Origin: an uncultured Opitutaceae bacterium | Lineage (GTDB): Bacteria > Verrucomicrobiota > Verrucomicrobiia > Opitutales > Opitutaceae | NCBI GenBank assembly: GCA_964496645.1 | Contig: CAZCAJ010000023.1 | Coordinates: 1 to 54,934, forward strand | DNA length: 54,934 nucleotides | Direction of reading: 5' to 3' | Translations under genes and position numbers: made by a program | The notes under the pieces: model-generated | What the model was told of the DNA's origin: nothing | The model's database searches: none | The model's input: the letters and a program-made list of their open reading frames with translations, nothing else | Part shown: positions 2,295 through 26,396 of the stretch, one piece after another | Numbering within the stretch: the first letter of the stretch is position 1 | Layout: the number at the start of each line of letters is the position of its first letter

Positions 2295-3539
2295 TCACTT
2301 CCCGCGGGCGGGAAGGGGCATCACCCAGCCGGGCGGGTTCACGGGGACGACCACGCGCTCCCCGGCGCGGATCCTGGGGGCGTAGCGGCTCCAGTGCATG
2401 TCCGCATAGGCGGGCTCGCGGTCCCTCGGGGCGTTCGCCAGGAGCCCGATGACCACGAGGGCCGCGGCCGCCCTCCCGGCCCGGCCCCCTTCGTCCGCCG
2501 TGACGAGGAGCAGCCATATCGCGACCAGCTGCGGGATGAAGACGTACCGCGCGTGTGCCAGCGGCTCGAAGTACTCGCCAAGCGTGTATCGCGTCCTGAC
2601 GAAGGCCCCGAGGAGCATCGCTGCGAACGCGAGACCCAGGAGGGCCCGCTCCGCCCGGAGCCTGCCGGGCCTGAAGGCCATGTATCCCACCCCCGCGAGG
2701 GTGGCGACGCCCGCGACGGTCCCGATGACAACGTCCGTCTCGGGGGCCATGAGCGAGCCGAGGACGATGGAGGCGCCTATCCTGCGCGCGACCGCGGGAA
2801 GGAAGAGCCGGGCCGCGATCGTGTGAGCCGCGTGGGGATCCCCGGGAAACGGGGGCTCGACGAGGACCAGGGCGAGCTGGACGACGGCGCAGGCGGCGAC
2901 GATGGCCGCGAGGACAAGGCTGGCGCGCGTCCTTCGGCTCCACGCCCGCCAGGCGAACAGCGGGGCGAGGATGATGCAGAACGGGCCGGTCAGGCCCAGG
3001 AGCGCTGCGGCGGCGACGTCGTGGGCCCACTGGCCCGCGCGCCCCGGGTCGCGCGAGACAAGGAGCAGGATCAGGCCGGCCGCCAGCACCCACTGGAGGT
3101 TCACCACGTTGAGGAACACCTCGTACGTGTCGGGGACGAGGACGACGGCGAGGGCGCAGGCGCCGGCGAAGCGGGGGAGGGGGCAGCGCCGCGACAGCGT
3201 CCGGGCCGCGACATAGAGCGTGGCGGCGCCCGAGGACGCCACGAAGATCGCCGGCGCGCGGGCGGGGTCGATCGCCACCGAGGCCTGCGCGATCATCCGC
3301 AGGACCGTGTGGAGGTACCCGGCGAACGGCTCGAGGAATGCCTTCCAGCCGAACACGTAGGCCCGCTCGAAGAAATAGGCGTCCTCGGCCCAGAACTGGG
3401 GGTTCGTCAGCGCCTCGGCCCGGCGCAGGCCGAGGATGACCGCGCACGCCGCGAGGACCGCGGCCGCCGGGGGATCGGCGAGGAGGCGCGAGAGCCGCTC
3501 GCGCGCCGTCAGGGCGCGGCTTGGGAGGACCTCGACCAT
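2295..3539 (-). CDS. Polytopic integral membrane protein of unknown function (about 414 aa, at least 9 predicted TM helices), last gene of the caa3 oxidase operon
   Basis: Long hydrophobic ORF. Internal ATG at 3539 (MVEVLPSRAL...) chosen as start because upstream in-frame sequence is Arg/Pro-rich low-complexity. It overlaps the ctaG stop by 31 nt on the same strand. Motif NPQFWAEDAYFFERAY lies in loop 1. Confidence 0.55.
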   Translation of the reverse strand: MVEVLPSRALTARERLSRLLADPPAAAVLAACAVILGLRRAEALTNPQFWAEDAYFFERAYVFGWKAFLEPFAGYLHTVLRMIAQASVAIDPARAPAIFVASSGAATLYVAARTLSRRCPLPRFAGACALAVVLVPDTYEVFLNVVNLQWVLAAGLILLLVSRDPGRAGQWAHDVAAAALLGLTGPFCIILAPLFAWRAWSRRTRASLVLAAIVAACAVVQLALVLVEPPFPGDPHAAHTIAARLFLPAVARRIGASIVLGSLMAPETDVVIGTVAGVATLAGVGYMAFRPGRLRAERALLGLAFAAMLLGAFVRTRYTLGEYFEPLAHARYVFIPQLVAIWLLLVTADEGGRAGRAAAALVVIGLLANAPRDREPAYADMHWSRYAPRIRAGERVVVPVNPPGWVMPLPARGK

Positions 3540-4294
3540 TTGAAGAAGCAGACTCCGAGCACGGTCAGCGACACGGCCATTCCCACGGATTTCATGATGA
3601 TGCCGGCAAGCAGCTGGTCGTCGGCGGGCGTGAACCCGGCGATCAGCCTCGGCGCATACTCGTAGGTCGGATAGAGAATGTCGCGCGAAAACACGATGTA
3701 GGCCGAGACCGGGATCATGGCGATCTCGGTCCCGACCGCGTAGAGCATGCGCACCCCGTAGCCCGGCGACGGAAAGGCCGCCGAGGGGCTCGCGAGCGGC
3801 CACCAGTACAGGAGCGACGCCGCGAGGAACATGAGGTGCTCGCCGACGTGGGCCAGCTTGTCCTGGAGCGTCCACTCGTAGAGCGCCGGCACGTGCCAGA
3901 GGCTTATGACCGCCGTCGAGACGACCGCGCAGGCGAAGGGGCTGAGGAGCATCCGCAGCGGCGTGCGCAGCACGGGCCGGGATAGGACCGGGTCCGCCAT
4001 CCAGGCCGGGGTCCCCAGCAGGATGAGCAGCGGCACCGGGTACATGATGAGCAGGTGCTGCGCCATGTGCGCCGACAGCAGGAAGCGCTCGCCGACCTGG
4101 TCGAGCGGCGAGCCGACGGCGAGGTAGAAGATGGCTAGCGCGCCGTAGAACCCGACCGCCTGCCCGCGCGGGAAGGGCCTCCCGGGAGCGAGCATCGCCC
4201 TCAGGGGCCCGGCAAGGATCGCGTAGAGCCAGCCGGCGAGGATGAGGCCGCCCGTCAGGAACGGCTCGTTGTGCCAGTGCCGCCAGTCGATCAT
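3509..4294 (-). CDS. ctaG: Cytochrome c oxidase caa3-type assembly factor CtaG (Caa3_CtaG family membrane protein)
   Basis: 261 aa multi-TM protein; MAQHLLIMYPVPLL and WHVPALYEW motifs are typical of Bacillus-type CtaG; located after the subunit genes in the operon. Confidence 0.75.
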   Translation of the reverse strand: MIDWRHWHNEPFLTGGLILAGWLYAILAGPLRAMLAPGRPFPRGQAVGFYGALAIFYLAVGSPLDQVGERFLLSAHMAQHLLIMYPVPLLILLGTPAWMADPVLSRPVLRTPLRMLLSPFACAVVSTAVISLWHVPALYEWTLQDKLAHVGEHLMFLAASLLYWWPLASPSAAFPSPGYGVRMLYAVGTEIAMIPVSAYIVFSRDILYPTYEYAPRLIAGFTPADDQLLAGIIMKSVGMAVSLTVLGVCFFKWSRSSQAAP

Positions 4295-4327
4295 CTTTTC
4301 GCCCGGACGGCCGGCCGGGCGGCCGGT

Positions 4328-4693
4328 TCAGGCGGCCCTGGCGGCCATCGCCGGAGGGGCCGCCGCCGCGAGCGGCTTGCTTGCGTCAGCCCCGAAGAGC
4401 TTGAGGAGCGCGATCATCGTCCCGGCCGCGAGGACGAGGCCGATGAAGAACAGGATCGTGCAGAACGCCCTGTCCCAGCGCAGGTGCATGAAATAGAAGA
4501 TGACGAACATGAACTTCACGGTCGAGAGGACGACCAGCACCGAGAACAGGATCCACCTCATGAAGGGCAGGTAGACGGTGACGAGCTCAAGGCCCGTGAT
4601 GACGGCGAGGAGCATCGCTATCTGGACGAAGATCCAGAACTTGCTCTGCTCGAGCTCGTGGCCCTGGGAGGGGGCTGCTGCGTGGGTGCTCAT
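4328..4693 (-). CDS. ctaF: Cytochrome c oxidase subunit IV (prokaryotic CoxD/CtaF type)
   Basis: 121 aa protein with 3 TM helices; the ...FMFVIFYFMHLRW... region is typical of bacterial aa3/caa3 subunit IV; lies between subunit III and ctaG. Confidence 0.7.
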   Translation of the reverse strand: MSTHAAAPSQGHELEQSKFWIFVQIAMLLAVITGLELVTVYLPFMRWILFSVLVVLSTVKFMFVIFYFMHLRWDRAFCTILFFIGLVLAAGTMIALLKLFGADASKPLAAAAPPAMAARAA

Positions 4694-4717
4694 GTCGGCA
4701 TTCGGCGTTGGAGGGGG

Positions 4718-5338
4718 TCAGATGTACTCGAGCAGGTACACGGCCGTGAAGATCACGATCCAGACGATGTCGACGAAGTGCCAGTACAGGCCCATCGACT
4801 CGACGTCTATCGCCTCCTTCTCGGTCAGCCGGCCCGTGAACGAGTAAAGGAGCATCCCGCTGAGCCAGATCACGCCCACGAGCACGTGGAGGCCGTGCGT
4901 CCCGGTCAGGGTGAAGAACGTGGTGCCGAGGATGCTGTTCGTGATCGTCAGGTGCTTCTCGTACACGAAGTTCCTGAACTCGTAGACCTGGCACCCGAGG
5001 AAGATGCACCCGAAGAAGATCGTCGTCAGCAGCGACCAGCGCATGCTCTTCAGGTTCCCCTTCTGGATCGCGTTGACGGCGAGCGCCATCATCAGGGACG
5101 ACATGAGCAGGATGAAGGTCGAGAACGACGTCAGCTCGATGCTGAAGACCTGCCTTGCCGGCGGGGTCCCCGGGGGCGGGTGAAGCCGGTAGATCAGGTG
5201 CGTCGAGATGAGGCAGCCGAAGAACATGCAGTCCGAGGCGAGGAAGGCCCACATGAGGACCTTCTTGTTCGGGATCCCGGTCGAGGTGGTCGGATCGAAA
5301 TGGTGGTCGATCGTGGCTGTCGCCGCATCGCTGCTCAT
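4718..5338 (-). CDS. ctaE: Cytochrome c oxidase subunit III
   Basis: 206 aa; conserved HHFDP, WAFLASDCMFFG and FTLTGTHGLHVLVG motifs. Confidence 0.9.
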   Translation of the reverse strand: MSSDAATATIDHHFDPTTSTGIPNKKVLMWAFLASDCMFFGCLISTHLIYRLHPPPGTPPARQVFSIELTSFSTFILLMSSLMMALAVNAIQKGNLKSMRWSLLTTIFFGCIFLGCQVYEFRNFVYEKHLTITNSILGTTFFTLTGTHGLHVLVGVIWLSGMLLYSFTGRLTEKEAIDVESMGLYWHFVDIVWIVIFTAVYLLEYI

Positions 5339-5369
5339 GGGGATTGGGTCGGCCGGGGGCCTCGGCTCC

Positions 5370-7361
5370 TCAGTGGTTTGACGGGTAGCCGCCGTGGGCG
5401 TCGTCGCCCGTCACGGTGCCGTCCTTGTCCAGGTGGATGTGGGTGCCTTCGCAGCCCTCGAGCGACCAGAGGACGATCGAGACGAACATGATCGCCCCTC
5501 CCGCCAGCGTGACGGCGATCTTCGGGCCCCAGAACCCGGGGTAAAGGTTGTGGTCGGCAGGGTCGACGATGGCCGTGCCGATCGCGCCGATCATGATGCC
5601 GACGCCCGCGAGGAACGGGTAGATCGACTGGAACGGCATGTGTATCCCCCCATGCGCCTCCTCGGCCTTCGCGTGTTCCTCTTCCTCCCTCGAGACCTCG
5701 TCCGCGTGGCGCTTCTCGTACCACCAGCCGTCGCGCGCGTGGATCGTCGGTATCACCCGGAAATTGTACTCGGGGACCGGGTTCGGGAGGCTCCACTCGA
5801 GCGTCCGTGCGTCCCACGGGTCCTTGCCGGTGCGCTCGCCCCTGTAGTACGTGTAGACCATGGTGACGAGGTAGACCCCGATCCCGCCGGCTAGGATGAA
5901 CGCCCCCACCGATGAGATCATGTTCCCCAGGTTCCAGCCCATGTTCCCGTCGTAGGTGTACGTGCGCCGGGGCATGCCCTCGAGGCCCAGGAAGTGCATG
6001 GGGAAGAACGTCGCGTTGAAGCCGATGAAAACCAGCCAGAACGACGCCTTGCCCCAGAGCTCGCTCACCTTGCGGCCGAACATGAGCGGGAACCAGTAGT
6101 GTATACCCGCCAGGAGGGCGAAGAGCGATCCGCCGATGAGGACGTAGTGGAAGTGGGCGACGACGAAATAGCTTCCGTGCTGCTGCATGTCGGCGGGCGC
6201 CGCGGCGTGCATGACCCCGGAGAAGCCGCCTATCATGAACATCCACAGGAACCCGAGGGCGAACATCATCGGGGTGCGCATGCTCAGGTGGCCCCCCCAG
6301 AGCGTGCCTATCCAGTTGAATATCTTGACGCCCGTCGGCACGGCGATCGCCATCGTCATCAGCGCGAAGGCCGCGTTGGCCACCGTGCCCAGGCCGGAGG
6401 TGAACATGTGGTGGCTCCAGACGCCGAAGCCGAGCAGGCCGATGCTTGCGCCGGAGAAGACGACGATGGGGTACCCGAACAGGGGCTTCCTGGAGAATGT
6501 CGGCAGGATCTCCGAGATGATCCCCATCGCCGGGAGGATGAGGATGTACACCTCCGGATGCCCGAATATCCAGAACAGGTGCTGCCAGAGGATCGGCATG
6601 CCGCCGTTGGAGACCTCGAAGAAGTTCGTGCCGAAGAGCCGGTCCATCATGATCTCCACGAGGGCGATCGTGATCGCGGGGAAGGAGAGGATGATCAGGA
6701 ACGAGGTGAAGAGCGTCATCCAGGTGAACACGGGCAGCCGCATCATGGTCATACCCGGCGCGCGCATGTTGATGATCGTGACGATGAAGTTGAGCGCGGC
6801 CGCGATGGAGGCCACCCCGAGCAGCTGCAGCCCCATGACCCACATGTCGATCGCATGGGTCGGGCTGAACGCCCTCGTCGTGAGCGGGGCGTAGCCGACC
6901 CACCCGGCGTTGGGCACGCCGTCCTTCATGAACCAGCCGAGGTTCACGATGATCGCGCCCACGAGGAACGTCCAGTACGAGAACGCGTTCAGCCGCGGGA
7001 AGGCCACGTCGCGCGCCCCGATCTGGAGCGGCATCACGAAGTTGAAGAACGCCGCCCCGATGGGCATGACGACGAGGAAGATCATCGTCGTCCCGTGCAT
7101 CGTGAACATCTCGCTGTACTGCGCCGACGTGAGGAACGTGTTGTTCGGGACCGCGAGCTGGATGCGGATGAGCAGCGCCTCGATCCCCCCCATGACGAGG
7201 AAGAAGAGCCCGGAGGCGCCGTAGAGGAACCCGATCCGCTTGTGGTCGACCGTGGTCAGCCAGCTCAGGAGGCCCGTCTTTGCCGTCGGGCGCCAGAGGA
7301 CGAGGGGCTTCGCGGGCTGCTGGCCCTTCGCGAGGAAGTCGGACTTGGCAATGGCTTCCAT
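5370..7361 (-). CDS. ctaD: Cytochrome c oxidase subunit I (heme-copper oxidase catalytic subunit) with an extra C-terminal extension of about 150 aa containing 2 TM helices
   Basis: WLTTVDHKRIGFLY, GHPEVYILILP, and the HHMF and HFHYV histidine ligand motifs. Start at MEAIAKSD (ATG 7361); the upstream in-frame Arg-rich 90 aa is judged non-coding. The C-terminal tail ends His-rich (HIHLDKDGTVTGDDAHGGYPSNH). Confidence 0.9.
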   Translation of the reverse strand: MEAIAKSDFLAKGQQPAKPLVLWRPTAKTGLLSWLTTVDHKRIGFLYGASGLFFLVMGGIEALLIRIQLAVPNNTFLTSAQYSEMFTMHGTTMIFLVVMPIGAAFFNFVMPLQIGARDVAFPRLNAFSYWTFLVGAIIVNLGWFMKDGVPNAGWVGYAPLTTRAFSPTHAIDMWVMGLQLLGVASIAAALNFIVTIINMRAPGMTMMRLPVFTWMTLFTSFLIILSFPAITIALVEIMMDRLFGTNFFEVSNGGMPILWQHLFWIFGHPEVYILILPAMGIISEILPTFSRKPLFGYPIVVFSGASIGLLGFGVWSHHMFTSGLGTVANAAFALMTMAIAVPTGVKIFNWIGTLWGGHLSMRTPMMFALGFLWMFMIGGFSGVMHAAAPADMQQHGSYFVVAHFHYVLIGGSLFALLAGIHYWFPLMFGRKVSELWGKASFWLVFIGFNATFFPMHFLGLEGMPRRTYTYDGNMGWNLGNMISSVGAFILAGGIGVYLVTMVYTYYRGERTGKDPWDARTLEWSLPNPVPEYNFRVIPTIHARDGWWYEKRHADEVSREEEEHAKAEEAHGGIHMPFQSIYPFLAGVGIMIGAIGTAIVDPADHNLYPGFWGPKIAVTLAGGAIMFVSIVLWSLEGCEGTHIHLDKDGTVTGDDAHGGYPSNH

Positions 7362-7369
7362 CGGGCGGC

Positions 7370-8635
7370 TCACTTGAGGCTCTCGAGGAAGGCGACCAGG
7401 GCGTCCTCGTCGGCGGGCGTCAGCTTGATGCTGTTCGCGAGGTACCCGTTCACCCACATCTTGTTGCCGGGCTTCACCTCGTTCGGGGCGTGGATCCAGC
7501 GGTGGAGCTCGTCGCGGTTGTTCTCGAGGAGGCCCCCGGCGATCGTCGTGCGCGCGCCGACGTGGGTGAGCTCGGGCCCCTGGATCCCGACGGCGCCGTC
7601 CAGCCCGCGGATCGTGTGGCAGCTGGCGCAAGTCTTAGACACGAAAAGGCCGCGGCCCTTCGCGATCAGGGCCGGATCCTCGTCCTTCCCGGGAAGCTGC
7701 TGCGCCCGCCAGGCGTCGAGCGGGGACACGTCGAACTTGTCGGTGTAGCCCGGCTCGTTCCGGCGGAACTCGCGGTAGGCGGCAAACTGCGCCCTCGGGG
7801 GGGCCCCGGCGGAGGCGACCGCGGCGGGGACGCCGCGGGCGGGCGCCGCCTGCGCGCTGAGCCAGTCGTAGAATTCCCTCGGGCTGAGCGCGATCACGCG
7901 GAACCGCATCACCGCATGCGACTCGCCGCAGAACTCCGCGCACTGCCCCCAGAAATACCCGGGCTTCTCCGCCTTGATCCAGAGGGAGTTGCCGCGGTTG
8001 GGCACCATGTCCACCTTGCCGGCGAGCTTGGGGACCCAGAAGCTGTGGATGACGTCGACCGTGCGCAGGTTGACGTGGACCGGCCGGCCGGCCGGGATCA
8101 CGAGCTCGGAGCCCGTCGTCAGCGGGGCGCTGACGAGCTTGCCCGTCGCGTCGGGCGCCTGGGCCGTCTCGTTTGGATAGTCGAACTTGAACCACCACTG
8201 GTAGCCGGTGGCCGTGACCTCGTACGCGTCGGCCCTCTCGGCCTCCGGGACGTCGTAGGTGTACCAGACGCCCTTGAGGGTGGGGATGGCGATGATGACC
8301 AGCGAGAACACGGAGGCCGCGATCAGGCTCACCTCCACTACCGGGTTGCCGTGGTGCTGCTCGGGCGGCTCGGCGTGCTCGTCGGAATCGCTGCGGGCCC
8401 TGAACCTGATCATCGCGTAGGCCAGGGCGCTGCCGACCAGGATGAAGATCGCCAGCGTCACCCAGCACGTGACGTAGAACAGGTCCAGCTGCTCGCGCGC
8501 GACCGGGCCGTTGGGATCGAAGGTCGACTGCGGGCCGTCCAGCCAGAAGCATCCCGACAGGAGCGGCAAGGCGGCTAGGGCCGCGGCCGAGACGGCCCGT
8601 CGGAGGAGGCGGGTGGGAGGGTCCTTTAAACGCAT
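7370..8635 (-). CDS. ctaC: Cytochrome c oxidase subunit II with fused C-terminal mono-heme cytochrome c domain (caa3-type CtaC), lipoprotein
   Basis: CuA motif H...CAEFCGESHAVM; C-terminal CASCH heme-binding motif; N-terminal lipoprotein signal ...ALPLLSGC. Start at MRLKDPP (ATG 8635) preferred over the upstream ATG at 8704. Confidence 0.88.
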   Translation of the reverse strand: MRLKDPPTRLLRRAVSAAALAALPLLSGCFWLDGPQSTFDPNGPVAREQLDLFYVTCWVTLAIFILVGSALAYAMIRFRARSDSDEHAEPPEQHHGNPVVEVSLIAASVFSLVIIAIPTLKGVWYTYDVPEAERADAYEVTATGYQWWFKFDYPNETAQAPDATGKLVSAPLTTGSELVIPAGRPVHVNLRTVDVIHSFWVPKLAGKVDMVPNRGNSLWIKAEKPGYFWGQCAEFCGESHAVMRFRVIALSPREFYDWLSAQAAPARGVPAAVASAGAPPRAQFAAYREFRRNEPGYTDKFDVSPLDAWRAQQLPGKDEDPALIAKGRGLFVSKTCASCHTIRGLDGAVGIQGPELTHVGARTTIAGGLLENNRDELHRWIHAPNEVKPGNKMWVNGYLANSIKLTPADEDALVAFLESLK

Positions 8636-8862
8636 TTGTGCAGTCGCAACTGAGCGGCGCCCCGAGGGGGGGCCGACAGAACGCGAAGTACAGTCAGCGA
8701 ACATCCGGGCATTTCAAGCCATATTCGGACAGATTTTTCGCCTCCAAGCCAAGCGGAGCCGCCCCGTCCGGCCCCGGGGGCGGACGTTCCGGCACCGCCG
8801 GGCCCTCGCCGCGAGTGTTTCGATTTGCGATTGGGGCCGGCCTGGGCGAGCGTTTCCGCCCG

Positions 8863-9345
8863 ATGAATACACGACTTCTTCTCCTCACTGCTGTTGTCTC
8901 AATTGTCGCTTCCGGCTGCGGCCAGAAGGACTCGTCGACGGCGGGCGCGGCGACCCCGGCCGGACCCCGCGAGATAGACATCACGGCGGGAGACACGATG
9001 AAGTACAGCATCACGGCGATAGAGGCCAAGCCGGGCGAGGACATCAAGGTGGTCCTGACGAACACCGGCACGCAGCCGAAGGAGGTCATGGGTCACAACT
9101 GGATCCTCCTGAAGGCGGGTTCCGACGTCGCGGCGTTTGACGCGGCCGCCCTCAACTCTAAGGACACCGGCTACGTCCCCGCCGCGCTCAGCGACGAGAT
9201 CATCGCCCACATCGACCTCCTGGGGCCCCGCAAGTCGGGCGAGATCGAGTTCCAGGCGCCCACGACGCCGGGCGACTACAACTTCCTGTGCACGTTCCCG
9301 GCCCACTACCAGGCGGGGATGAAGGGCGTGCTCACCGTCAAGTGA
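8863..9345 (+). CDS. Azurin-like type-1 (blue) copper protein, lipoprotein
   Basis: Lipobox IVASGC; the azurin signature MGHNW(I/V)L and C-terminal FLCTFPAHYQAGMKGVLTVK match the azurin Cys/His/Met ligand set; divergent from ctaC. Confidence 0.85.
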   Translation: MNTRLLLLTAVVSIVASGCGQKDSSTAGAATPAGPREIDITAGDTMKYSITAIEAKPGEDIKVVLTNTGTQPKEVMGHNWILLKAGSDVAAFDAAALNSKDTGYVPAALSDEIIAHIDLLGPRKSGEIEFQAPTTPGDYNFLCTFPAHYQAGMKGVLTVK

Positions 9346-9444: not shown

Positions 9445-9879
9445 ATGAGCTGGGAGAATGAAAGCCACTACGTCAGCACCGATCCCGGGCTCCTCGACCT
9501 CGACTTCGTGTGCGCGGCGCTTGCCGGGTCCTATTGGGCGCAAGACCGCCCCCGCGACGTGATCGCGCGGTCCATCGGGGCCTCGCTCTGTTTCGGGCTC
9601 TACGAGAAGCGGGGCGGCAGACAGGTGGGCTTCGCCCGGGTCGTCACGGACGCCGCGACCTTCTCGTGGCTGTGCGACGTCGTCGTGGACGAGCGCCACA
9701 GGGGCAAGGGCCTCGGCAAGTTCCTGCTGTCGTGCGTGGTCGCCCACCCGCACGTGAGCTCCACCAAGTGCCTCCTAGCCACCCGCGACGCGCACGCCCT
9801 CTACGAGAAGTTCGGCTTCGCCCGGGCCGAGCAGATGAGGCGGCCGCCGACCGAGGCGCGGCCGCAGGCCCGGGCGTAG
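9445..9879 (+). CDS. GNAT family N-acetyltransferase
   Basis: 144 aa; acetyl-CoA binding motif RGKGLGKFLL and a GNAT-fold pattern. Confidence 0.75.
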   Translation: MSWENESHYVSTDPGLLDLDFVCAALAGSYWAQDRPRDVIARSIGASLCFGLYEKRGGRQVGFARVVTDAATFSWLCDVVVDERHRGKGLGKFLLSCVVAHPHVSSTKCLLATRDAHALYEKFGFARAEQMRRPPTEARPQARA

Positions 9880-9886
9880 CCCTTCT

Positions 9887-10321
9887 CTACCCGCGCTGAG
9901 GCCACCACCGGTACAGGAAGAAGTAGACGAGGACGCCCGTCACCGACACGTAGTACCAGATGGGAAACGTGACGCGGGCCCATGCGCGGTGGCGCTCGAA
10001 GTCCCCCTTCAGGGCGAAGACGAACGTCCGGGGCACGAGGAACGCGATGAGCCCGGCCAGCGGGATGTGGGTCCAGAGGATGGCAAGGTACACCCCGCGG
10101 ATGGCGCCGGCCCCGCCGAAGGGCGTGTGGGCCCCCCTCATCATGGCGTGATAGGTGACGTAAAAGACTAGGAACAAAGCGGATGCCACAGCCGCCGCTA
10201 GCATGCATGCGCGGTGGGCCCCGCGGTCGCCCCGCTTGATGAAGACGAATCCGGCCGTTATCAGGATGGTGGCGATCCCGTTCAGCGCGGCCTCGATCGA
10301 GGGAAGGTCGTGCACGTTCAC
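9887..10321 (-). CDS. DUF420 membrane protein (CtaM-like cytochrome oxidase accessory protein)
   Basis: 144 aa with 4 TM helices, about DUF420 length. GTG start at 10321 overlaps the ctaB stop (GTGA). It is the third gene of the ctaA-ctaB unit, the same context as Bacillus CtaM. Confidence 0.6.
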   Translation of the reverse strand: MNVHDLPSIEAALNGIATILITAGFVFIKRGDRGAHRACMLAAAVASALFLVFYVTYHAMMRGAHTPFGGAGAIRGVYLAILWTHIPLAGLIAFLVPRTFVFALKGDFERHRAWARVTFPIWYYVSVTGVLVYFFLYRWWPQRG

Positions 10322-11208
10322 GGCCGGCTCAGGAGCAGCCTGTCCCCGACGAGCAGGCCAAGGAGCAGGGGGAGGTAGGCCAGCGAGAAGAGGAAGAGCC
10401 TTCGGGCGCCCGCGTCCCGCGACGCCGGCCTGAGGAACGCCGCCGCCCTCCACAGGAAGCACGCGCCGACCGCGAGCGCCGCGGCGCCGTACCACCGGCT
10501 GGCAAGCCCGAGGAACGCAGGGAGCACGCTCACGACCGTCAGCGCGGCGGTCGCGGCGAGCGACCAAAGCGCGACCTTCCCGCCCGACTCGTCGCGCACG
10601 GGCAGCATCGGGAAATGCACTGCGGAATAGTCGCTCCTGTAGGTCCAGGCGATCGCCATGAAGTGCGGGATCTGCCAGAGGAAGAGGATGCCGAAGAGGA
10701 TCCAGCCCAGGGCCGAGACCGCGCCCTGTGCGGCGGACCAGCCTATCAGCGGCGGGAGCGCCCCCGCGATCGCGCCGATCTCGGTGCTCCACAGGCTCCA
10801 GCGCTTCGCCGGCGTGTACCAGCCCAGGTAGAAGGCGATCGTCAGGAGGGTGAAGAGGGCCGCGAGCCTGCCGACCTCCATGAATATGAGCATCAGCGCC
10901 GCGATGCACATGAGCCATCCGAGGACGAACGCCGAGCCCCCCGCGACCCTGCCCGTCGGGATCGGCCGCAGCGCCGTGCGCCGCATCCGCGCGTCCGTGT
11001 CGCTCTCCATCCACTGGTTGAGCGAGGCGACGCCGCCGGCGGCCAGCGAGGTTCCGACGACGAGGAGCCCGACCCGGAGCGGGTCGAACGCGGGCCGCGC
11101 CGCCACGTAGCCCACGAGCGCCGTCATGACCGACAGCAGGCTCAGCCGCGGCTTGGTCAGCTCGAGGTAGTCGCCGAATCGCGCATGCGCGGGAGCTGCG
11201 TCCTTCAT
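10318..11208 (-). CDS. ctaB: Protoheme IX farnesyltransferase (heme O synthase)
   Basis: 296 aa UbiA-family protein with 9 TM helices; FGDYLELTKPRL N-terminus and a conserved Asp-rich region; ATGA overlap with the ctaA stop. Confidence 0.9.
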   Translation of the reverse strand: MKDAAPAHARFGDYLELTKPRLSLLSVMTALVGYVAARPAFDPLRVGLLVVGTSLAAGGVASLNQWMESDTDARMRRTALRPIPTGRVAGGSAFVLGWLMCIAALMLIFMEVGRLAALFTLLTIAFYLGWYTPAKRWSLWSTEIGAIAGALPPLIGWSAAQGAVSALGWILFGILFLWQIPHFMAIAWTYRSDYSAVHFPMLPVRDESGGKVALWSLAATAALTVVSVLPAFLGLASRWYGAAALAVGACFLWRAAAFLRPASRDAGARRLFLFSLAYLPLLLGLLVGDRLLLSRP

Positions 11209-12185
11209 GGGATGGTCCGCCCCTCGATCGCGTCGCGGTGGGCGAGCCACGTGAGCCAGAAGGCGGCGACGAGGGTGAGCGCCCCCACCACCACGTGGCC
11301 CGTCGTGACGCCGACGGCGCGGTAGGTCCGGATTATCAGGGCCCCGAGGAATATCTGGAGGGCGACCAGGCTGACGAGGGCCGAGGCGCCGGAGCGCATC
11401 CCGGGCGACGCCCCACGGTCCCGCCAGACAGCGACCGCGAACCCCGCGATCGCCAACGCGACGGCGCACGCCATGGCGCGGTGGGCGAACTGGATGGCGA
11501 CCTGGAAGCTCCACGCCGCGGGCAGCAGGCCGCCCGCGGGCGTCGACCATGGGAACGTCGGGATCGCCAGGCCTGCGAAGCTGTGGCGCACGACGGCCCC
11601 GATGGCGAGCTGCGCGAAGAGCAGGGCGCAGCAGAGGACCCCCATGCGCCTCGCCCCTTTGCCGACCGGCATGGGCCTCGTGATCCACCCCCTCGAGCAG
11701 GAAACGGCCAGCGCGACGAGGGCGCAGGCGAAGGCCTGCGCGAGGCAGGCGTGGAGCATCGCAATCAGCCGGCCGAGGCTCGTGTCGAGGGGCTCGATGT
11801 GGATCCGGTCGAGCAGGACGCGGAGCCCGCCGACGACCGCCTGGGCGACCACGAGGCCGAGCGCAAGGTACGAGAGCCTGCGCAGCCACGCCCTCTGCTC
11901 GGTGCGCCAGAGCCAGGCGGCGAGGACGAGGGTGAGGGCCGTCATCATGCCCGCGCTCAGCCGGTGCGAGTGCTCGGCGAACATCGACAGGTTCGTGAGC
12001 CAGCCCTCGGGGTTGAGCGAGCCGTTCGAAAGCGGCCAGTCCGGGAACGCCATTCCCGCGTTGATCGTCGTCGTGAAGGCGCCGAGCGCCACCAGCACGA
12101 AGACCCAGGCCGCGGCAAAGGCCGAGAACGCAGCGAGCGCCGGCCTGTATGAGGCGTTTTGCTGGTGATCGGGCCGTGCGTCCAT
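11205..12185 (-). CDS. ctaA: Heme A synthase (COX15/CtaA family)
   Basis: 326 aa with 8 TM helices; paired His motifs (AEHSHR and FAHRAMA) typical of type-2 CtaA; upstream of ctaB. Confidence 0.85.
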   Translation of the reverse strand: MDARPDHQQNASYRPALAAFSAFAAAWVFVLVALGAFTTTINAGMAFPDWPLSNGSLNPEGWLTNLSMFAEHSHRLSAGMMTALTLVLAAWLWRTEQRAWLRRLSYLALGLVVAQAVVGGLRVLLDRIHIEPLDTSLGRLIAMLHACLAQAFACALVALAVSCSRGWITRPMPVGKGARRMGVLCCALLFAQLAIGAVVRHSFAGLAIPTFPWSTPAGGLLPAAWSFQVAIQFAHRAMACAVALAIAGFAVAVWRDRGASPGMRSGASALVSLVALQIFLGALIIRTYRAVGVTTGHVVVGALTLVAAFWLTWLAHRDAIEGRTIP

Positions 12186-12271
12186 GAGCGGGGGGAATGA
12201 GCAGAAGAAGGCAACATCGTGCCCGCCTCAAACGCTTTGACAAATTTTTCCTCGGGCGGATTGGTGTCTCC

Positions 12272-13177
12272 ATGCGAACCACTGCCGGGCGCCAACTCCT
12301 TGCGTGCGCGGCGCTGGCCGCGCTCGCGTCGGGCGGCTGCGGGAGGGGGACCGGGGGAGCCCCGGCCGTCTCCTCCGCGCCCCCCGGCGAGAGGCGCTTC
12401 GCCCTTTCGGGGGAGATCCTCTCGGTCGACGCCAAGCGGAAGGTCCTCGTCGTGCGGCACAACGAGGTCGCCGGCTACATGCCCGCGATGACCATGGAGT
12501 TCCCGGTCTCCGCGGGCGACGCGGCCGCCGCGAGGCCCGGCGAGCGGATCCGGGCGGAACTCGTGGTGGAGCGGGGAGGGGCCCTCCGGCTCGAGAGGAT
12601 CTGGCCAAACGACTCGGTCTCCCTCGACACGATCGACGCGGGCGCCCGCATGCTCCGCCAGGACACGCTTGCGAAGGGCGGTGCGGCCTTCAGGGAGGTC
12701 GGCGAGAGGGCTCCGGAGTTCGTGCTCTACGACCAAAACGGCCGCGTCGTCAGCAGCGCGCGCTTCCGCGGCAAGCAGATCATGCTCAACTTCATCTACT
12801 CGCGCTGCCCGGTGGCGAACATGTGCCCGCTGTCAACGGCGAAGATGATGGCCGCGCAGAAGCTCGCGAGGGAATCGGGCGTGGGCGACATCGAGTTCGT
12901 ATCGGTCACGATGGACCCGGCGTACGACACACCGGGAGTCCTCAGGGATTACGCCGACCAGCGGGGGATAGACACGTCCAACTTCTCCTTCCTGACCGGC
13001 CCCGAGGCGGCGATCCGGGACCTGCTGGCGCAGTTCGGCGTGATCGCGGAGTTCAGGGGGAACATCCTCGACCACACGCTGGCGACGCTCCTCATCGACG
13101 AGAAGGGCCGGATCGCGTGGAGGGCCGACGGGAGCGCCTGGGAGCCGAGGGAGTTCGTGGAGCGGATGCACCGGTGA
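12272..13177 (+). CDS. SCO1/SenC-family copper chaperone fused to an N-terminal CusF-like Cu(I)-binding domain; lipoprotein
   Basis: Lipobox LASGGC. The N-terminal about 110 aa carry the CusF-type motif HNEVAGYMPAMTMEFPV. The C-terminal thioredoxin-fold SCO domain has the metal-site His in the DHT motif, but an atypical C-x5-C (SRCPVANMCP) instead of the canonical CxxxC. Confidence 0.8.
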   Translation: MRTTAGRQLLACAALAALASGGCGRGTGGAPAVSSAPPGERRFALSGEILSVDAKRKVLVVRHNEVAGYMPAMTMEFPVSAGDAAAARPGERIRAELVVERGGALRLERIWPNDSVSLDTIDAGARMLRQDTLAKGGAAFREVGERAPEFVLYDQNGRVVSSARFRGKQIMLNFIYSRCPVANMCPLSTAKMMAAQKLARESGVGDIEFVSVTMDPAYDTPGVLRDYADQRGIDTSNFSFLTGPEAAIRDLLAQFGVIAEFRGNILDHTLATLLIDEKGRIAWRADGSAWEPREFVERMHR

Positions 13178-14106
13178 CGGACGGCGGGGACACACCGAGA
13201 ATCGGGGCCCGCGAGTGGCGCCAGATCGCCGCGATCACGGCGTCGGCGATCCTGCTATTCCTCGTCGTCCGCGAGCTGCCGACGGGGACCAACCTGAGCC
13301 ACATGGACTTCCGGGTGCAGGGCGCGAACACCATCGAGTTCTGCGACCCGGCCAACCCCCAGTTCCTGCCTGTGGTCGCCGTGCGCTCGCCGGTGTCGCT
13401 CACCGTGTCTACGCCCTCGCCGCCGCGGGCCGGCTCGGAGGTGGCGGCGACCCTGGTCCTCACCACCTTCAGCGGCAAGCCGATCGCGCCGGAGGACCTG
13501 CAGGTGGTCCAGACGAGGCGCGTACACCTCCTGATCGTCGACCCGTCGCTCGACGACTACCAGCACGTGCACCCGGTGCCGGGCCGCAGGCCAGGCGAGT
13601 GGGAATTCAGCTTCCGGCCGCGGTTCGGCGGGGCCTACCGGATCTTTGCGGACTTCACGCCGGTCGCCACGAACCGCGGACTCTACTCGGAGACCGAGAT
13701 GGGCGTAGCCGGGGCGCCCAGCCCGGTGGCCGCGGGATCCCAGCCGCGGTCGTGGGCCTGGGCGGGGGACGGATACCTCCTCGAGCTCTCGCCGGGCGCG
13801 CCGCCGATACGCGCGGGATCACCGGCCGACCTCAGGCTCGTCATCACGGCGACCGGAGGCGGCCCGGTGCCTCTGGAGACCGTCATGGGCGCGTATGCGC
13901 ACCTGGTCGCTTTCGACGCGCAGAGGAGCGGATTCGCGCACATCCACCCGCGGGAGGCCGACGTGACCCGCCGGCCCGATCCCCTGCGCCCGGCCTTCAC
14001 GTTCAGGCTGATGATCCCGCATCCCGGCCGGTACGTCATCTGGAGCGAGGTGAACCTGGCCGGCAAGCTCACCTTCGCCCCCTTCTGGTTCGACGTGAGC
14101 CCGTGA
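13174..14106 (+). CDS. Periplasmic or membrane-anchored protein with two internal repeats carrying H-x-H-P motifs; putative copper-handling protein (YtkA/FixH-like?)
   Basis: GTG start at 13174 overlaps the SCO1 stop (GTGA). N-terminal TM or signal anchor IAAITASAILLFLVV. Two repeats of about 100 aa align to each other (HLLIVDPSLDDYQHVHP...GAYRIFADF versus HLVAFDAQRSGFAHIHP...GRYVIWSEV). No confident family match from memory. Confidence 0.55.
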   Translation: MTDGGDTPRIGAREWRQIAAITASAILLFLVVRELPTGTNLSHMDFRVQGANTIEFCDPANPQFLPVVAVRSPVSLTVSTPSPPRAGSEVAATLVLTTFSGKPIAPEDLQVVQTRRVHLLIVDPSLDDYQHVHPVPGRRPGEWEFSFRPRFGGAYRIFADFTPVATNRGLYSETEMGVAGAPSPVAAGSQPRSWAWAGDGYLLELSPGAPPIRAGSPADLRLVITATGGGPVPLETVMGAYAHLVAFDAQRSGFAHIHPREADVTRRPDPLRPAFTFRLMIPHPGRYVIWSEVNLAGKLTFAPFWFDVSP

Positions 14107-14112
14107 CCCGGA

Positions 14113-14892
14113 TCAGAACTTGAGGTGCTTGACCGTCAGCCCCTTGTTGATGAGCTGGTTCAGGGAGTCGATGCCGATGTTCAGGTGCATGTCGACGAAC
14201 TTCTCCTCGACCCTCATGTCGCTCTCGATCGTCTTCACGCCCTCGGGGACCATCGGCTGGTCCGACACGAGGAGGAGGGCGCCAGTCGGGATCTCGTTTG
14301 CGAAGCCGACGATGAATATAGTCGCCGTCTCCATGTCGACGGCCATGACGCGGATCCTCTTCAGGTACTTCTTGAAGTCGTCGTGGTGCTCCCAGACCCG
14401 CCGATTGGTCGTGTACACCGTGCCCGTCCAGTAATCGAGCGCGCGGTCCCGGATCGTCGTCGAAATCGCCTTCTGGAGCGCGAAGGCGGGGAGGGCGGGG
14501 ACCTCCGGCGGGAAATAGTCGTTGCTCGTGCCCTCGCCGCGGATGGCCGCTATCGGCAGGATCAGGTCGCCGACCTCGGCGCGGTGCTTGATCCCGCCGC
14601 ACTTGCCGAGGAAGAGCGCCGCCTTCGGCCTGATCGCGCTGAGCAGATCCATGACGGTCGCCGCGTTGGCGCTTCCCATCCCGAAATTGATGATCGTGAT
14701 CTTGCCCGCCGTGGCGGTGGGCATCGGCTTCTCCCGGCCGTGGACCTGCACCTTCTGCGCCCTGGCGAACAGGTCCACGTACCGCTGGAAGTTGGTGAGC
14801 AGGATGTACTCGCCGAACCTCTCCAGGGCCACCCCCGTGTAGCGAGGGAGCCAATTCTCGACGATTTCACGGCGTGTCTTCAGGGCGCACAT
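14113..14892 (-). CDS. PNP/UDP-phosphorylase-family protein, short AMP-nucleosidase-like (catalytic domain only)
   Basis: 259 aa. Resembles the C-terminal catalytic domain of AMP nucleosidase (GKCGGIKHRAEVGDLILPIAAIRGEGTS; MAVDMETATIF) and lacks the N-terminal regulatory domain. Confidence 0.7.
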   Translation of the reverse strand: MCALKTRREIVENWLPRYTGVALERFGEYILLTNFQRYVDLFARAQKVQVHGREKPMPTATAGKITIINFGMGSANAATVMDLLSAIRPKAALFLGKCGGIKHRAEVGDLILPIAAIRGEGTSNDYFPPEVPALPAFALQKAISTTIRDRALDYWTGTVYTTNRRVWEHHDDFKKYLKRIRVMAVDMETATIFIVGFANEIPTGALLLVSDQPMVPEGVKTIESDMRVEEKFVDMHLNIGIDSLNQLINKGLTVKHLKF

Positions 14893-23910: not shown

Positions 23911-24999
23911 TCACATTGGCGCGGCCTGGCGCGAAGCCTCCGCGCTCTGCCCGGGCGGGCCCGCGGCGGCGACGGAGCGCAGCAGGGGCTCGACCTGCCT
24001 CCAGAGGCCGTCGGCGCGCTGACCGAGCATGGCCCTGCACCTGGCTATCTCCGCCTCGCGGGCGAACCGGTTTCGCTCCGCGATCCTCGCGAGGTCGTCA
24101 AGATTGTACAGGAACACGTTCTGCAGGTCCGCCGCCGACGCCTCGACGTCGCGCGGGATGGCCAGGTCGATGAGAAGGAGGGGTCGGGCGGGCCGCCTGC
24201 CCATCGCCTCGGCGATGGCGGAGGTCTCGAGCACCGCGCCCGGGGCCGCCGTCGAGCAGACGACGATGTCGTAGTCGGAGAGGCGCGAGCGGCGCTCGTC
24301 AAAATCCACCATTCCCGCCCCCAGGCCGCCGGCGACCTCGGTCGCCCGCTCCCTGTTGCGGCCCGCTACCGCGAGGTGCGCGGCACCCCGGCTCATGAAG
24401 GCCCGCGCCGTCCCCTCGCCGATCTCGCCCGTCCCGAGGACGAGGACCCTTGCGCCCGCAAGGTCGCCGAAAATGTTGGAAGCCAGCTCGACGGCCACGT
24501 TCGAGACGCTCACGCGCCCGGCCGATATCCCGGTGTGGGTGCGCACGTGCTTGGCCGCCTGGAACGCCTTCTGGAAGACTCGGTTTAGCACCGAGCCGGT
24601 TGAGCCGCGGGCCTTGGCCGCGGCGTAGGCCTCCTTCACCTGGCCGAAGATCTCGTTCTCGCCCAGCAGCTGGGAGTCGAGCCCGCTGGCGACCTCAAAG
24701 AGGTGGAGCGCCGCGTCGCGACCCGCGTGCCTGTGCCGTATGCGCTCGAATTCCGCGGCGTCGAACCGCTGGCGCGCACAGTACGCCGCCTTCACCAACT
24801 CCTCCGTGTCCCCGCCAGCGCCCACCCCGTAGATCTCGACGCGGTTGCACGTGTTGAGCACCGCGAACTCACTGAGGCCGGGAACGGCGGCCAGGTCGGC
24901 CCGGAACCCGTCCTCGGAGACCAGAGCAAGCCTTTCCCTGACCTCGACCGGCGCCCTGTGGTGGGACGCGCCGATGACGAAAAGGCGGGGCTCGCTCAT
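23911..24999 (-). CDS. hemA: Glutamyl-tRNA reductase
   Basis: LNTCNRVEIY catalytic-Cys motif and the NADPH-binding GTGEIG motif; 362 aa. Confidence 0.92.
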   Translation of the reverse strand: MSEPRLFVIGASHHRAPVEVRERLALVSEDGFRADLAAVPGLSEFAVLNTCNRVEIYGVGAGGDTEELVKAAYCARQRFDAAEFERIRHRHAGRDAALHLFEVASGLDSQLLGENEIFGQVKEAYAAAKARGSTGSVLNRVFQKAFQAAKHVRTHTGISAGRVSVSNVAVELASNIFGDLAGARVLVLGTGEIGEGTARAFMSRGAAHLAVAGRNRERATEVAGGLGAGMVDFDERRSRLSDYDIVVCSTAAPGAVLETSAIAEAMGRRPARPLLLIDLAIPRDVEASAADLQNVFLYNLDDLARIAERNRFAREAEIARCRAMLGQRADGLWRQVEPLLRSVAAAGPPGQSAEASRQAAPM

Positions 25000-25844
25000 T
25001 GCGAGGTCCGCTCGGGGGCCGGCGCGGCCCCGGGGTGGCGGCTCCCCTCGACCGCCTCCAGGGAGAGGAGCGCCGCGGCGAACAGGGCCAGGCACGTCCA
25101 GGCGAACCTCCGGGCAAGCAGGCGCCCGGCGATCCTCATCCCGAGCGCCGCGGCGTACGCGATCCAGACGGCGACCGTCGACGCGAGCTTCAAATGGCCC
25201 ACCGTGGCGGTGTCCCGCGACCAGTACACCCAGCCGAAGCCGAGCGCGGCCGTGAGGATCGCCACCCCCGCCCCGAGGAGGCGCACCTCGATGTGGTCGA
25301 GGTCCATGATCGACGGAAGGAAATAGAACCAGCCTCCCAGGTTCTTGGACTTGAGCGAATAGTGGCGCATCAGGAACATGGCCGAGGCGAGAGCGAGCAG
25401 CCCGAAGACGCCGTAGCTGAACATCGCGAGGGCCGCGTGAAGCTCGATCCACGGGTTGCCGCCAAAGATGTGCGTCCGGCGGATGGCGTCCCAGGACGGG
25501 ATCGAGAGCGACACGAAGGTGAGGGCGGCGCCGAGGCACGACGTGAAGACCCCGAAGATGCTCGAGCGGAACGTTACGCCGACGACGAGGTAGAGGGTGA
25601 TGGCCGACCACGCGGTGAACTGGAAGATCTCGAACCGGTTGCCAAGAGGGCAGCCGCCCGTCGCGTGGCCGCGCATGCCCAGCCCGACGAACTGGAGGAG
25701 ATAGCCCAGGGCGATCGCCCCGTAGACGGTCGCGCCGGAGGTCCTCCCCCCGCGCAGAAGCGACACCGTGCCCAGGAGCACCCCTGCGGCGTACAGCGCC
25801 GCGGCGCCCCAGAGCCATTGCCGGTCGGACAGGTATGCGGTCAT
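24996..25844 (-). CDS. Cytochrome c assembly protein family membrane protein (CcsA/HemX-like) upstream of hemA
   Basis: 282 aa with 8 TM helices; ATGA overlap with hemA, the same arrangement as hemX-hemA in Firmicutes; Trp-rich segment GFGWVYWSRD. Confidence 0.75.
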   Translation of the reverse strand: MTAYLSDRQWLWGAAALYAAGVLLGTVSLLRGGRTSGATVYGAIALGYLLQFVGLGMRGHATGGCPLGNRFEIFQFTAWSAITLYLVVGVTFRSSIFGVFTSCLGAALTFVSLSIPSWDAIRRTHIFGGNPWIELHAALAMFSYGVFGLLALASAMFLMRHYSLKSKNLGGWFYFLPSIMDLDHIEVRLLGAGVAILTAALGFGWVYWSRDTATVGHLKLASTVAVWIAYAAALGMRIAGRLLARRFAWTCLALFAAALLSLEAVEGSRHPGAAPAPERTSQ

Positions 25845-25886
25845 TGACCGACGATGCTGCCGGGGCCGCGGCCGCGGGCAAGCCCG

Positions 25887-26396
25887 CTAGCGGCCGGCAG
25901 GCGACCAGGAGGACAGGAACGCAACGATCTTCGCGGGGCTGTGCGCCTGGCCCTCCTCGAGCTCGCCCGAGTCCTTCGTCGTGAGCTGCCGGCCGTCGGA
26001 GTCGAGGACGACAAGCACGGGGATCCCGTGCCCGGTCGGGTTGCCGTATCGCGCGACCACGTCCGCGTTGCGCTTCACGCCCCTGCGAGTGTTGACGTCG
26101 ACCATGACGACGACGAAGCCCCTGCCGAGGGCCCTTGAGACCGAGGGGTCGTTCTCAAAGGTCGAGTGGAGCCTCCTGCACCAGATGCACCAGTTCGCCC
26201 CGAAATCCACGATCACGCGCTTGTGCTCGGCCGCGGCGATGCCGACGGCGGCCGCGATCTGCGCCGAGCCGTCCGCGCGGACGTCGTAGATGTCGGGCCC
26301 CATCCTCGGGTACTCCGGATCGGCGCGAAGGGACGGCGCCGCCAGCGCGGCGAGCGCGGCCATCGCGGCCGGCACGATTCGGAGGAGCGGTCCCAT
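25887..26396 (-). CDS. Secreted thioredoxin-fold protein (TlpA/ResA-like thiol-disulfide oxidoreductase)
   Basis: Signal peptide; active site WCIWC (CxxC); 169 aa; adjacent to the ccsA-like gene. Confidence 0.75.
   Translation of the reverse strand: MGPLLRIVPAAMAALAALAAPSLRADPEYPRMGPDIYDVRADGSAQIAAAVGIAAAEHKRVIVDFGANWCIWCRRLHSTFENDPSVSRALGRGFVVVMVDVNTRRGVKRNADVVARYGNPTGHGIPVLVVLDSDGRQLTTKDSGELEEGQAHSPAKIVAFLSSWSPAGR

Follow-up and report, generated by a model that had tools for sequence, protein, structure and literature searches.

The window analyzed here, a stretch of 54,934 nucleotides (positions 1 to 54,934 of contig CAZCAJ010000023.1) from an uncultured Opitutaceae bacterium, carries a gene whose product joins an N-terminal CusF-like domain to a Sco domain with a cysteine pair spaced Cx5C. 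We favor, with moderate confidence, the reading that this fusion protein is a periplasm-facing, lipid-anchored assembly chaperone dedicated to the CuA center of the neighboring caa3 oxidase, in which the CusF-like domain would take up Cu(I) and hand it in cis to the Cys2His site of the Sco domain, replacing the separate donors PCuAC or CtaK. Two metal sites are predicted: a CusF-type Cu(I) site (His63, Met70, Met73, and Met75) in the N-terminal oligonucleotide/oligosaccharide-binding (OB) domain and a Sco-type site (Cys179, Cys185, and His268) in which the loop between the cysteines is two residues longer than in the textbook Sco. All seven of these residues are invariant in an alignment of 121 homologues, from which all statements on invariance in the fusion protein are taken; the genome counts refer to 80 species-level Opitutaceae-related genomes. 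Cx5C with a Met before the second cysteine is found in 80 of the 80 genomes, and the full H..M..M.M motif is found in 79. The gene and the parts of its product are as follows.

12272 to 13177, plus strand: CusF-like/Sco(Cx5C) fusion gene, 301 amino acids, stop included (open reading frame; Pfam CusF_Ec and SCO1-SenC; full-length homologues of approximately 300 amino acids)
12272 to 12340, plus strand: signal peptide and lipobox ending at Cys23, MRTTAGRQLLACAALAALASGGC (predicted lipoprotein anchor, from the conservation of G22 and C23)
12392 to 12607, plus strand: CusF-like five-stranded OB domain, residues 41 to 112 (Pfam CusF_Ec; AlphaFold2 [AF2] model; Foldseek; profile search of the PDB)
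12458 to 12502, plus strand: predicted Cu(I) site loop, residues 63 to 77, H63-NEVAGY-M70-PA-M73-T-M75-EF, HNEVAGYMPAMTMEF (alignment to the SilF loop HEAIPAVGWPAMTMRF; conservation)
12614 to 12676, plus strand: linker helix, residues 115 to 135, with an LRQDTxxKG motif (helix in the AF2 model; conservation)
12713 to 13165, plus strand: Sco (thioredoxin-like) domain, residues 148 to 298 (Pfam SCO1-SenC; phmmer matches to solved Sco; Foldseek)
12806 to 12829, plus strand: Cx5C loop, C179-P-V-A-N-M184-C185-P186 (alignment to CxxxC with a two-residue insertion; conservation)
13070 to 13078, plus strand: D267-H268-T269, the Sco His ligand motif (ILDH268T) (alignment to the DHT of ScoI; conservation)

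The reading frame is intact over 301 codons in the translation of the window, and the start at 12272 was preferred to an upstream ATG at 12197 because homologues of approximately 300 amino acids cover the fusion protein from end to end. The G+C content of the genome is 69%, and its closest genome matches are Opitutaceae metagenome-assembled genomes with protein identities of at most 84%. G22 and C23 are conserved in at least 90% of the homologues, and the fusion protein is predicted from its sequence to be a lipoprotein with the lipid anchor at C23. The AF2 model of the full-length protein (predicted local distance difference test score [pLDDT] = 82, predicted template modeling score = 0.77) contains the five-stranded barrel of residues 41 to 112, the long helix of residues 115 to 135, and a thioredoxin-like domain; residues 1 to 35 have a pLDDT below 50. 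Within the linker, L128, D131, T132, K135, and G136 are invariant, and the LRQDTxxKG motif can be made out even in remote homologues with no CusF site. Translation of the window in six frames yields the CusF motif and the Sco Cx5C motif a single time each, and a chance match of either domain is excluded by the Pfam E-values given below. NCBIfam holds no specific model for the fusion protein, and a scan of positions 12100 to 14300 for promoters and terminators gave nothing useful.

The initial annotation of this gene, made from the letters alone, had proposed an N-terminal CusF-like Cu(I) domain fused to Sco, and the Pfam hits, the OB fold, and the ligand alignment all agree with that proposal. 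Pfam CusF_Ec (PF11604) matches residues 45 to 112 (E = 6e-10, 39.3 bits against a cutoff of 27). A structure prediction run for the isolated N-domain shows the CusF OB fold with a pLDDT of 90 (the N-domain ranges from 90 to 98 in the models), and the best 13 PDB matches of this model in Foldseek are all CusF, SilF, or the C-terminal domain of SilB (template modeling [TM] score = 0.65 to 0.79), among them 1zeq, 2vb2, and 2qcp (CusF), 2l55 (SilB C-terminal domain), and 8bwv (SilF). A profile search of the PDB with the N-domain likewise ranked SilF/CusF at the top. In this search RHNEVAGYMPAMTMEF is paired with SHEAIPAVGWPAMTMRF of the SilF loop, at a stretch of the profile to which the CusF chains are matched as well. 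H63, M73, and M75 correspond to the His and the Met-x-Met of the SilF loop, and M70 falls in the column of the capping Trp, where the Trp44 of CusF provides its cation-pi cap. Because M70 takes this position beside H63, M73, and M75, the sequence predicts a His-Met3 metal site. A W44M variant of CusF and natural Met-containing CusF homologues have been described before.

The C-terminal part of the protein is a Sco domain. Pfam SCO1-SenC (PF02630) matches residues 148 to 280 (E = 3.9e-24, 85.6 bits against a cutoff of 22.8), and phmmer matches the domain to solved Sco structures. Foldseek with the full model retrieved Bacillus subtilis Sco, Bradyrhizobium japonicum ScoI, and the Arabidopsis, yeast, and human SCO1, and the Sco domain reached an E-value of 4e-12 to 1xzo and target-normalized TM scores of 0.74 to 0.81 to Sco structures. 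The Sco signature DPxYDTP is present. H268, the conserved histidine that the initial annotation had pointed out, aligns with the histidine of the DHT motif of ScoI; T269 is also invariant, and the histidine is kept in 80 of 80 genomes.

The same annotation had described the cysteine pair as C-x5-C, and this description was confirmed. The stretch FIYSRC179-PVANM-C185-P spans positions 12791 to 12829 of the window, and HMMER alignments to the solved Sco structures 4hde, 4wbj, and 1xzo place C179 and C185 on the CxxxC cysteines with a two-residue insertion after "CP," pairing YSRCPVANMCP with YTHCP--DVCP of ScoI and with FTNCQ--TVCP of Bacillus anthracis Sco. A hidden CxxxC is ruled out: besides the lipobox C23, the only cysteines in the mature chain are C179 and C185, and both lie on the canonical pair. 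The spacing thus departs from the CXXXCXnH by which the Sco family is defined (PMC9145763). C179, P180, A182, M184, C185, and P186 of the loop are invariant; residues 182 to 184 have a pLDDT below 50 in the AF2 model, from which the loop is predicted to be flexible. M184 aligns with the Val or Ile that precedes the second cysteine in canonical Sco. No solved structure with a Cx5C Sco loop was seen in the PDB with full-length, sister-clade, or loop-peptide queries; all chains retrieved were Sco, the printed alignments all need the two-residue gap, and the loop of the Aquifex structure 3me7 lies outside the comparison.

The Sco domain also scores above the Pfam cutoffs for AhpC-TSA (36.3 bits) and Redoxin (39.2 bits) and has a weak NCBIfam thiol peroxidase match, which could be taken to mean that the protein is an antioxidant enzyme of the peroxiredoxin/AhpC type with no role as a copper chaperone. 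We regard this as highly improbable, since the SCO1-SenC score is far higher, the thiol peroxidase match reaches 25.1 bits against a cutoff of 140, the DPxYDTP and DHT hallmarks of Sco are present, and the best structural matches are Sco; such an enzyme would also account neither for the setting among oxidase genes nor for the Cu(I) domain to which it is joined.

The spacing had been called atypical, which is correct against the textbook Sco, whereas among its relatives Cx5C is a fixed signature. The Sco domain alone was searched against 1.84 billion cluster representatives (50% identity), which gave 14,390 matches at E <= 1e-3, and the best 150 of these were inspected. Among the 142 with a recognizable motif, 131 have Cx5C and 11 have CxxxC; the second cysteine is preceded by Met in 106 cases, by Phe or Tyr in 16, and by Lys in 5. 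Cx5C is fixed in 120 of 120 close homologues and in all 80 genomes. A sister clade, the named members of which are annotated as Rhodothermales, Rhodothermaceae, or Rhodothermus, has CPLPD[FY]C together with MPAMTMPF, and 119 of 119 proteins of this Rhodothermales-annotated clade have Cx5C and both CusF_Ec and SCO1-SenC. This fixation in close homologues, genomes, clusters, and the sister clade rules out a one-off or a sequencing artifact. As to the question of whether the C-x5-C variants form a clade, they do so in this sample: in a neighbor-joining tree built from 143 Sco domains (distance based, with no branch support and with sampling skewed to the relatives of the query), all 127 Cx5C domains are set off from 15 of the 16 CxxxC domains by a single split, and the lone CxxxC exception (P0176) is nested within the Cx5C group. 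As far as the sequences go, Cx5C is the normal signature of a large, uncharacterized Sco subfamily.

The family is abundant: of two word-indexed sequence searches, one gave over 2,000 matches and the other over 4,000. Its usual database labels are "SCO family protein" or "protein SCO1/2." A tblastn search of a plasmid collection found canonical Sco domains only and no full-length match to the fusion protein. The literature search found no paper that characterizes a CusF-Sco fusion or a Cx5C Sco, and the sole mention found is a remark in passing on a Bizionia protein (PMC11213822).

The genes upstream of the fusion gene form a cytochrome oxidase and heme A cluster.

3509 to 8704, minus strand: caa3-type oxidase operon consisting of a coxB-cytochrome c fusion, coxA, coxC, coxD, and Caa3_CtaG (Pfam COX2 and Cytochrom_C, COX1, COX3, COX4_pro, Caa3_CtaG)
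8863 to 9345, plus strand: lipoprotein cupredoxin of the azurin/plastocyanin family (Pfam Copper-bind, E = 4.9e-13; lipobox VASGC; His/Cys/His/Met ligand motifs)
9445 to 9879, plus strand: GNAT acetyltransferase gene, between the cupredoxin and DUF420 genes
9887 to 10330, minus strand: DUF420/CtaM-type oxidase assembly membrane protein, start approximate (Pfam DUF420, E = 1.1e-40)
10318 to 11208, minus strand: ctaB, heme O synthase of the UbiA family (Pfam UbiA, E = 2.3e-51)
11205 to 12185, minus strand: ctaA, heme A synthase, divergent from the Sco gene (Pfam COX15-CtaA, E = 5.5e-34)

The coxBACD-ctaG operon lies 3.5 kb from the fusion gene, and its CoxB retains an intact CuA motif, CAEFCGESHAVM, and a heme c motif, CASCH. 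In tblastn searches, the neighbors of the fusion gene were found in the following numbers of genomes: ctaA in 80, ctaB in 76, the downstream gene in 76, DUF420 in 71, coxB in 51, and the cupredoxin in 43; counts below 80 largely reflect contig ends. The module in which ctaB-ctaA diverges from Sco and a partner of approximately 300 amino acids also surrounds two distant Sco genes without the CusF site, at loci L081 (P0134) and L090 (P0177), although their Sco domains are only approximately 40 to 49% identical to that of the window and their partners only 36 to 37% identical. A six-frame motif scan of the 55-kb window found no PCuAC-type H(M)x10Mx21HxM motif and no second Sco. The reading as a CuA chaperone draws on the domain identities and folds, the complete caa3 and heme A cluster, the intact CuA motif of CoxB, and the invariant ligands; on the arrangement of ctaB-ctaA opposite Sco and its downstream gene, which is kept in 76 to 80 of the genomes and recurs at the two distant loci; and on the absence of a PCuAC-like motif or another Sco from the window.

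Assembly of CuA generally requires Sco together with a small Cu-binding partner, either PCuAC or CtaK, and unrelated proteins can serve in this role (PMC9145763; PMC7558416), which argues that the CusF-like domain could be such a donor acting in cis. In the proposed sequence of events, the Met-rich N-domain would take up periplasmic Cu(I) (step 1) and would pass this copper on within the same chain to the Cys2His site in its reduced form (step 2), a transfer made in trans by PCuAC in proteobacteria and Thermus and by CtaK in Bacillus; the Sco domain would then dock on CoxB and deliver copper for CuA (step 3). The proposed chaperone is further supported by two tandem relatives, P0203 (locus L082, 302 to 1723) and P0233, which resemble an assembly line of reductase, donor, and Sco. 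Each consists of a transmembrane helix, a CxxxC Sco-like domain, a CusF domain, and a Cx5C Sco domain; the first Sco-like domain has Gln or Leu at the position of the His ligand, and the second domain keeps the His (in a manual register based on the xxH......D spacing). The occurrence of a His-less CxxxC and a His-bearing Cx5C in one chain argues that neither domain stands in for the other and that the Sco which binds copper is the Cx5C domain, and comparison of the domains suggests that the two proteins hold reductase, donor, and Sco modules in a single chain. In another relative (P0505; locus L087, 8001 to 9221), the order is CusF-Sco-CusF.

The roles of the two domains could also be divided in the manner proposed for Thermus thermophilus: the Cx5C Sco domain would act on the CuA cysteines of CoxB as a thiol:disulfide oxidoreductase and hold them in the reduced state, and the CusF-like domain would give Cu(I) straight to CoxB with no transfer between the domains. 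A model in which Sco is the reductase and PCuAC the Cu donor has been set out (PMC7558416), and a fusion would be expected equally under it. The thioredoxin fold of the Sco domain and its scores above the Pfam Redoxin and AhpC-TSA cutoffs are in keeping with such a reductase, and the longer, flexible Cx5C loop could suit disulfide exchange. However, the copper ligand His268, which a pure reductase would not need, is invariant; the extra His-less CxxxC domain of the tandem relatives suggests that reductase activity is supplied separately; and relatives without the CusF metal loop retain Cx5C, the His, and the ctaA context. We consider this division of roles unlikely.

Several observations weigh against the chaperone with an in cis donor that we favor. 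Neither the literature nor the PDB yielded biochemical data for any Cx5C Sco. The fusions of the Rhodothermales clade are stand-alone genes in unrelated neighborhoods far from oxidase genes. Other settings also differ from that of the window: one relative comes after an ABC-2 permease gene, and one with no recorded CusF_Ec hit has an unannotated gene behind it, with a thioredoxin gene next in line. The Rhodothermales neighborhoods and the permease gene would fit a general role in periplasmic copper handling that is not specific to CuA, i.e., buffering or detoxification of Cu(I) or metallation of other cuproproteins, such as the adjacent cupredoxin. CusF domains classically belong to Cu/Ag efflux systems, Sco proteins serve several targets (PMC7558416; PMC9145763), and at a distance of 3 kb there is a type-1 copper lipoprotein, present in 43 of the 80 loci; all of this agrees with that role. 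On the other hand, a Pfam screen of 30 open reading frames of the window found no cusCBA, copA, or cueO and no genes for resistance-nodulation-division (RND) pumps, membrane fusion proteins, or outer membrane factors, and the tightest linkage is to ctaA (80/80) and ctaB (76/80) and not to the cupredoxin (43/80). General copper handling is in our judgment decidedly unlikely.

A further contrary observation concerns the CusF site itself. Of the 91 related clusters (50% identity) with an N-domain, 66, or approximately 70%, have lost the metal loop by deletion; the H..MxMxM motif is present in 27 of the 93 Cx5C representatives long enough to include this domain. N-domains without the motif are still homologous to that of the query (hhalign probability = 99.35%, E = 6e-21), and the deletion consists of six residues exactly at "GYMPAM." Representatives without the loop (P0128 to P0255, e.g., L081 4199 to 5089 and L090 2477 to 3454) keep LRxDTxxRG, Cx5C, and the His, and in the clusters examined they keep the same ctaA context. 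Because the OB domain is kept while its metal loop is lost, the relay is dispensable in many relatives. Lineages near the CxxxC outgroup carry the CusF motif, and Fitch parsimony requires at least six changes in this character, a rough figure for which some fragments or chimeras (P0121 and P0123, for example) were counted too. Conservation in 79 of 80 genomes means that selection on the CusF site is strong in the lineage of the window; judged by its losses elsewhere, the site is dispensable for the core function of the family. The persistence of the OB domain without the metal loop indicates that the N-domain probably has a second, metal-independent role, e.g., in docking or spacing. The initial annotation had suggested a relay from the Met site to the thiol site, and for the window protein this is plausible and fits the gene context; as the core function of the family, it does not hold.

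That annotation had also taken the Met between the cysteines, together with the fused CusF domain, as a sign of modified relay chemistry. Met184 is probably not a special relay ligand: it takes the place of a Val or Ile in canonical Sco, it is replaced by Phe or Tyr in the sister clade, in which the CusF site is always kept, and it is present in 64 clusters without the site. Met occurs with the site in 14 clusters, and Phe or Tyr goes with the site in 12 of 12. Since Met184 does not track the CusF site, the idea of the loop Met and the CusF motif as one concerted chemistry is weakened. The Pro directly after the first cysteine does track the intact CusF motif (22/25 against 10/66, Fisher p = 1e-10), an association that is confounded by shared ancestry.

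The gene downstream of the fusion gene encodes a partner protein.

13174 to 14106, plus strand: 310-amino-acid His-rich protein with an N-terminal transmembrane helix and two repeats ending in DYQHVHP and GFAHIHP (GTG start overlapping the Sco stop, GTGA)

From the GTGA overlap, the gene is read as translationally coupled to the Sco gene. The juxtamembrane segment of the protein, LPTGTNLSHMDF...EFCDP, is highly conserved, and its family has invariant His, Met, and Cys residues. The gene lies next to Sco in the 76 genomes counted above and also next to the distant Cx5C Sco genes at L081 and L090. Approximately 2,000 homologues were found, and all of those with a source name are called "hypothetical protein." Searches with the protein gave nothing significant in Pfam (E up to 10; three members of the family and, in addition, two half-length fragments), in NCBIfam, or in sequence and profile searches of the PDB; the sole match, to alpha-crystallin (E = 0.02), is not significant. 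The 310-amino-acid protein is probably a partner of the fusion protein in a copper delivery pathway and is a candidate for a new copper-handling or oxidase assembly factor; it is the most novel element near the fusion gene. A bolder proposal, which we put forward as doubtful, is that the CusF-Sco(Cx5C) lipoprotein and the 310-amino-acid protein with its paired H...HxHP would form an undescribed, self-contained module for copper insertion into CuA, which may also serve the cupredoxin and which, in Verrucomicrobiota and related lineages, would stand in for PCuAC or CtaK as well as for the canonical Sco; through its invariant Met, the expanded Cx5C loop would provide an S2N plus thioether site with a chemistry unlike that of the textbook Sco.

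Some further features of the window touch the oxidase cluster. The cupredoxin gene sits between coxB and DUF420-ctaB-ctaA, and its product has apparent His/Cys/His/Met ligands; this protein could donate electrons and also receive copper as a second client. The GNAT gene was found in only 2 of 80 related loci and is thus a variable passenger of an otherwise conserved cluster. Caa3_CtaG (3509 to 4294, minus strand) and DUF420/CtaM occur here in a cluster from Verrucomicrobiota, and reviews place both mainly in Bacillota and Actinomycetota. CtaM is the DUF420 protein, and the assembly set of the Bacillus type consists of Caa3_CtaG, CtaM, and Sco together with CtaK (PMC9145763). At positions 24996 to 26396 (minus strand), a thioredoxin-like protein (25887 to 26396) adjoins a cytochrome c assembly protein of the CcsA/ResC type (24996 to 25844); this pair may be a System II cytochrome c maturation and redox module for the cytochrome c domain of CoxB.

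The fusion protein is not unique: databases already contain many members of its family, labeled "SCO family protein." A Cu(I) donor covalently fused to Sco would be a convenient single-chain system for intramolecular Cu(I) transfer, for which sister lineages with a deleted donor loop and relatives with an added reductase-like domain are natural controls. The "defining" CxxxC of Sco is not universal, and this matters for the motif-based annotation of copper proteomes.

With the bacterial Sco/SenC/PrrC/YpmQ proteins (e.g., 1xzo and 4wbj), the window protein shares the thioredoxin-like fold, the two cysteines, the His approximately 89 residues farther on, DPxxDTP, a predicted membrane tether, and linkage to cytochrome c oxidase genes, whereas the Cx5C formed by a two-residue insertion after "CP," the N-terminal CusF-like domain, and the conserved linker helix set it apart. 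The source of the copper of Sco, and its role as donor or as reductase, are debated and apparently differ between organisms (PMC7558416; PMC9145763). With CusF, SilF, and the C-terminal domain of SilB, the N-domain shares the small five-stranded OB barrel with a His and a Met-x-Met loop in the same place, but the metal-capping Trp of Escherichia coli CusF corresponds to Met70. CusF is free-standing and is encoded with an RND pump of the CusCBA type, whereas the domain of the window is fused to Sco in an oxidase assembly cluster with no such pump nearby. PCuAC (PcuC/PccA/ECuC, DUF461) and the B. subtilis CtaK (YtkA) share with the N-domain the proposed role, in which a Cu(I) site of Met and His works together with Sco on CuA (PMC7558416; PMC9145763). 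This likeness is a functional analogy only, with no relation in sequence or fold: PCuAC has a cupredoxin-like fold and the N-domain an OB fold, and the donor in the window protein is covalently fused to Sco. The closest parallel to the tandem relatives P0203 and P0233 is the pathway of B. japonicum, in which TlpA (reductase), PcuC (donor), and ScoI act together (summarized in PMC7558416). The same three activities appear to be combined in these relatives, whereas they are divided among three separate proteins in B. japonicum, and the window protein has only two of the three modules.

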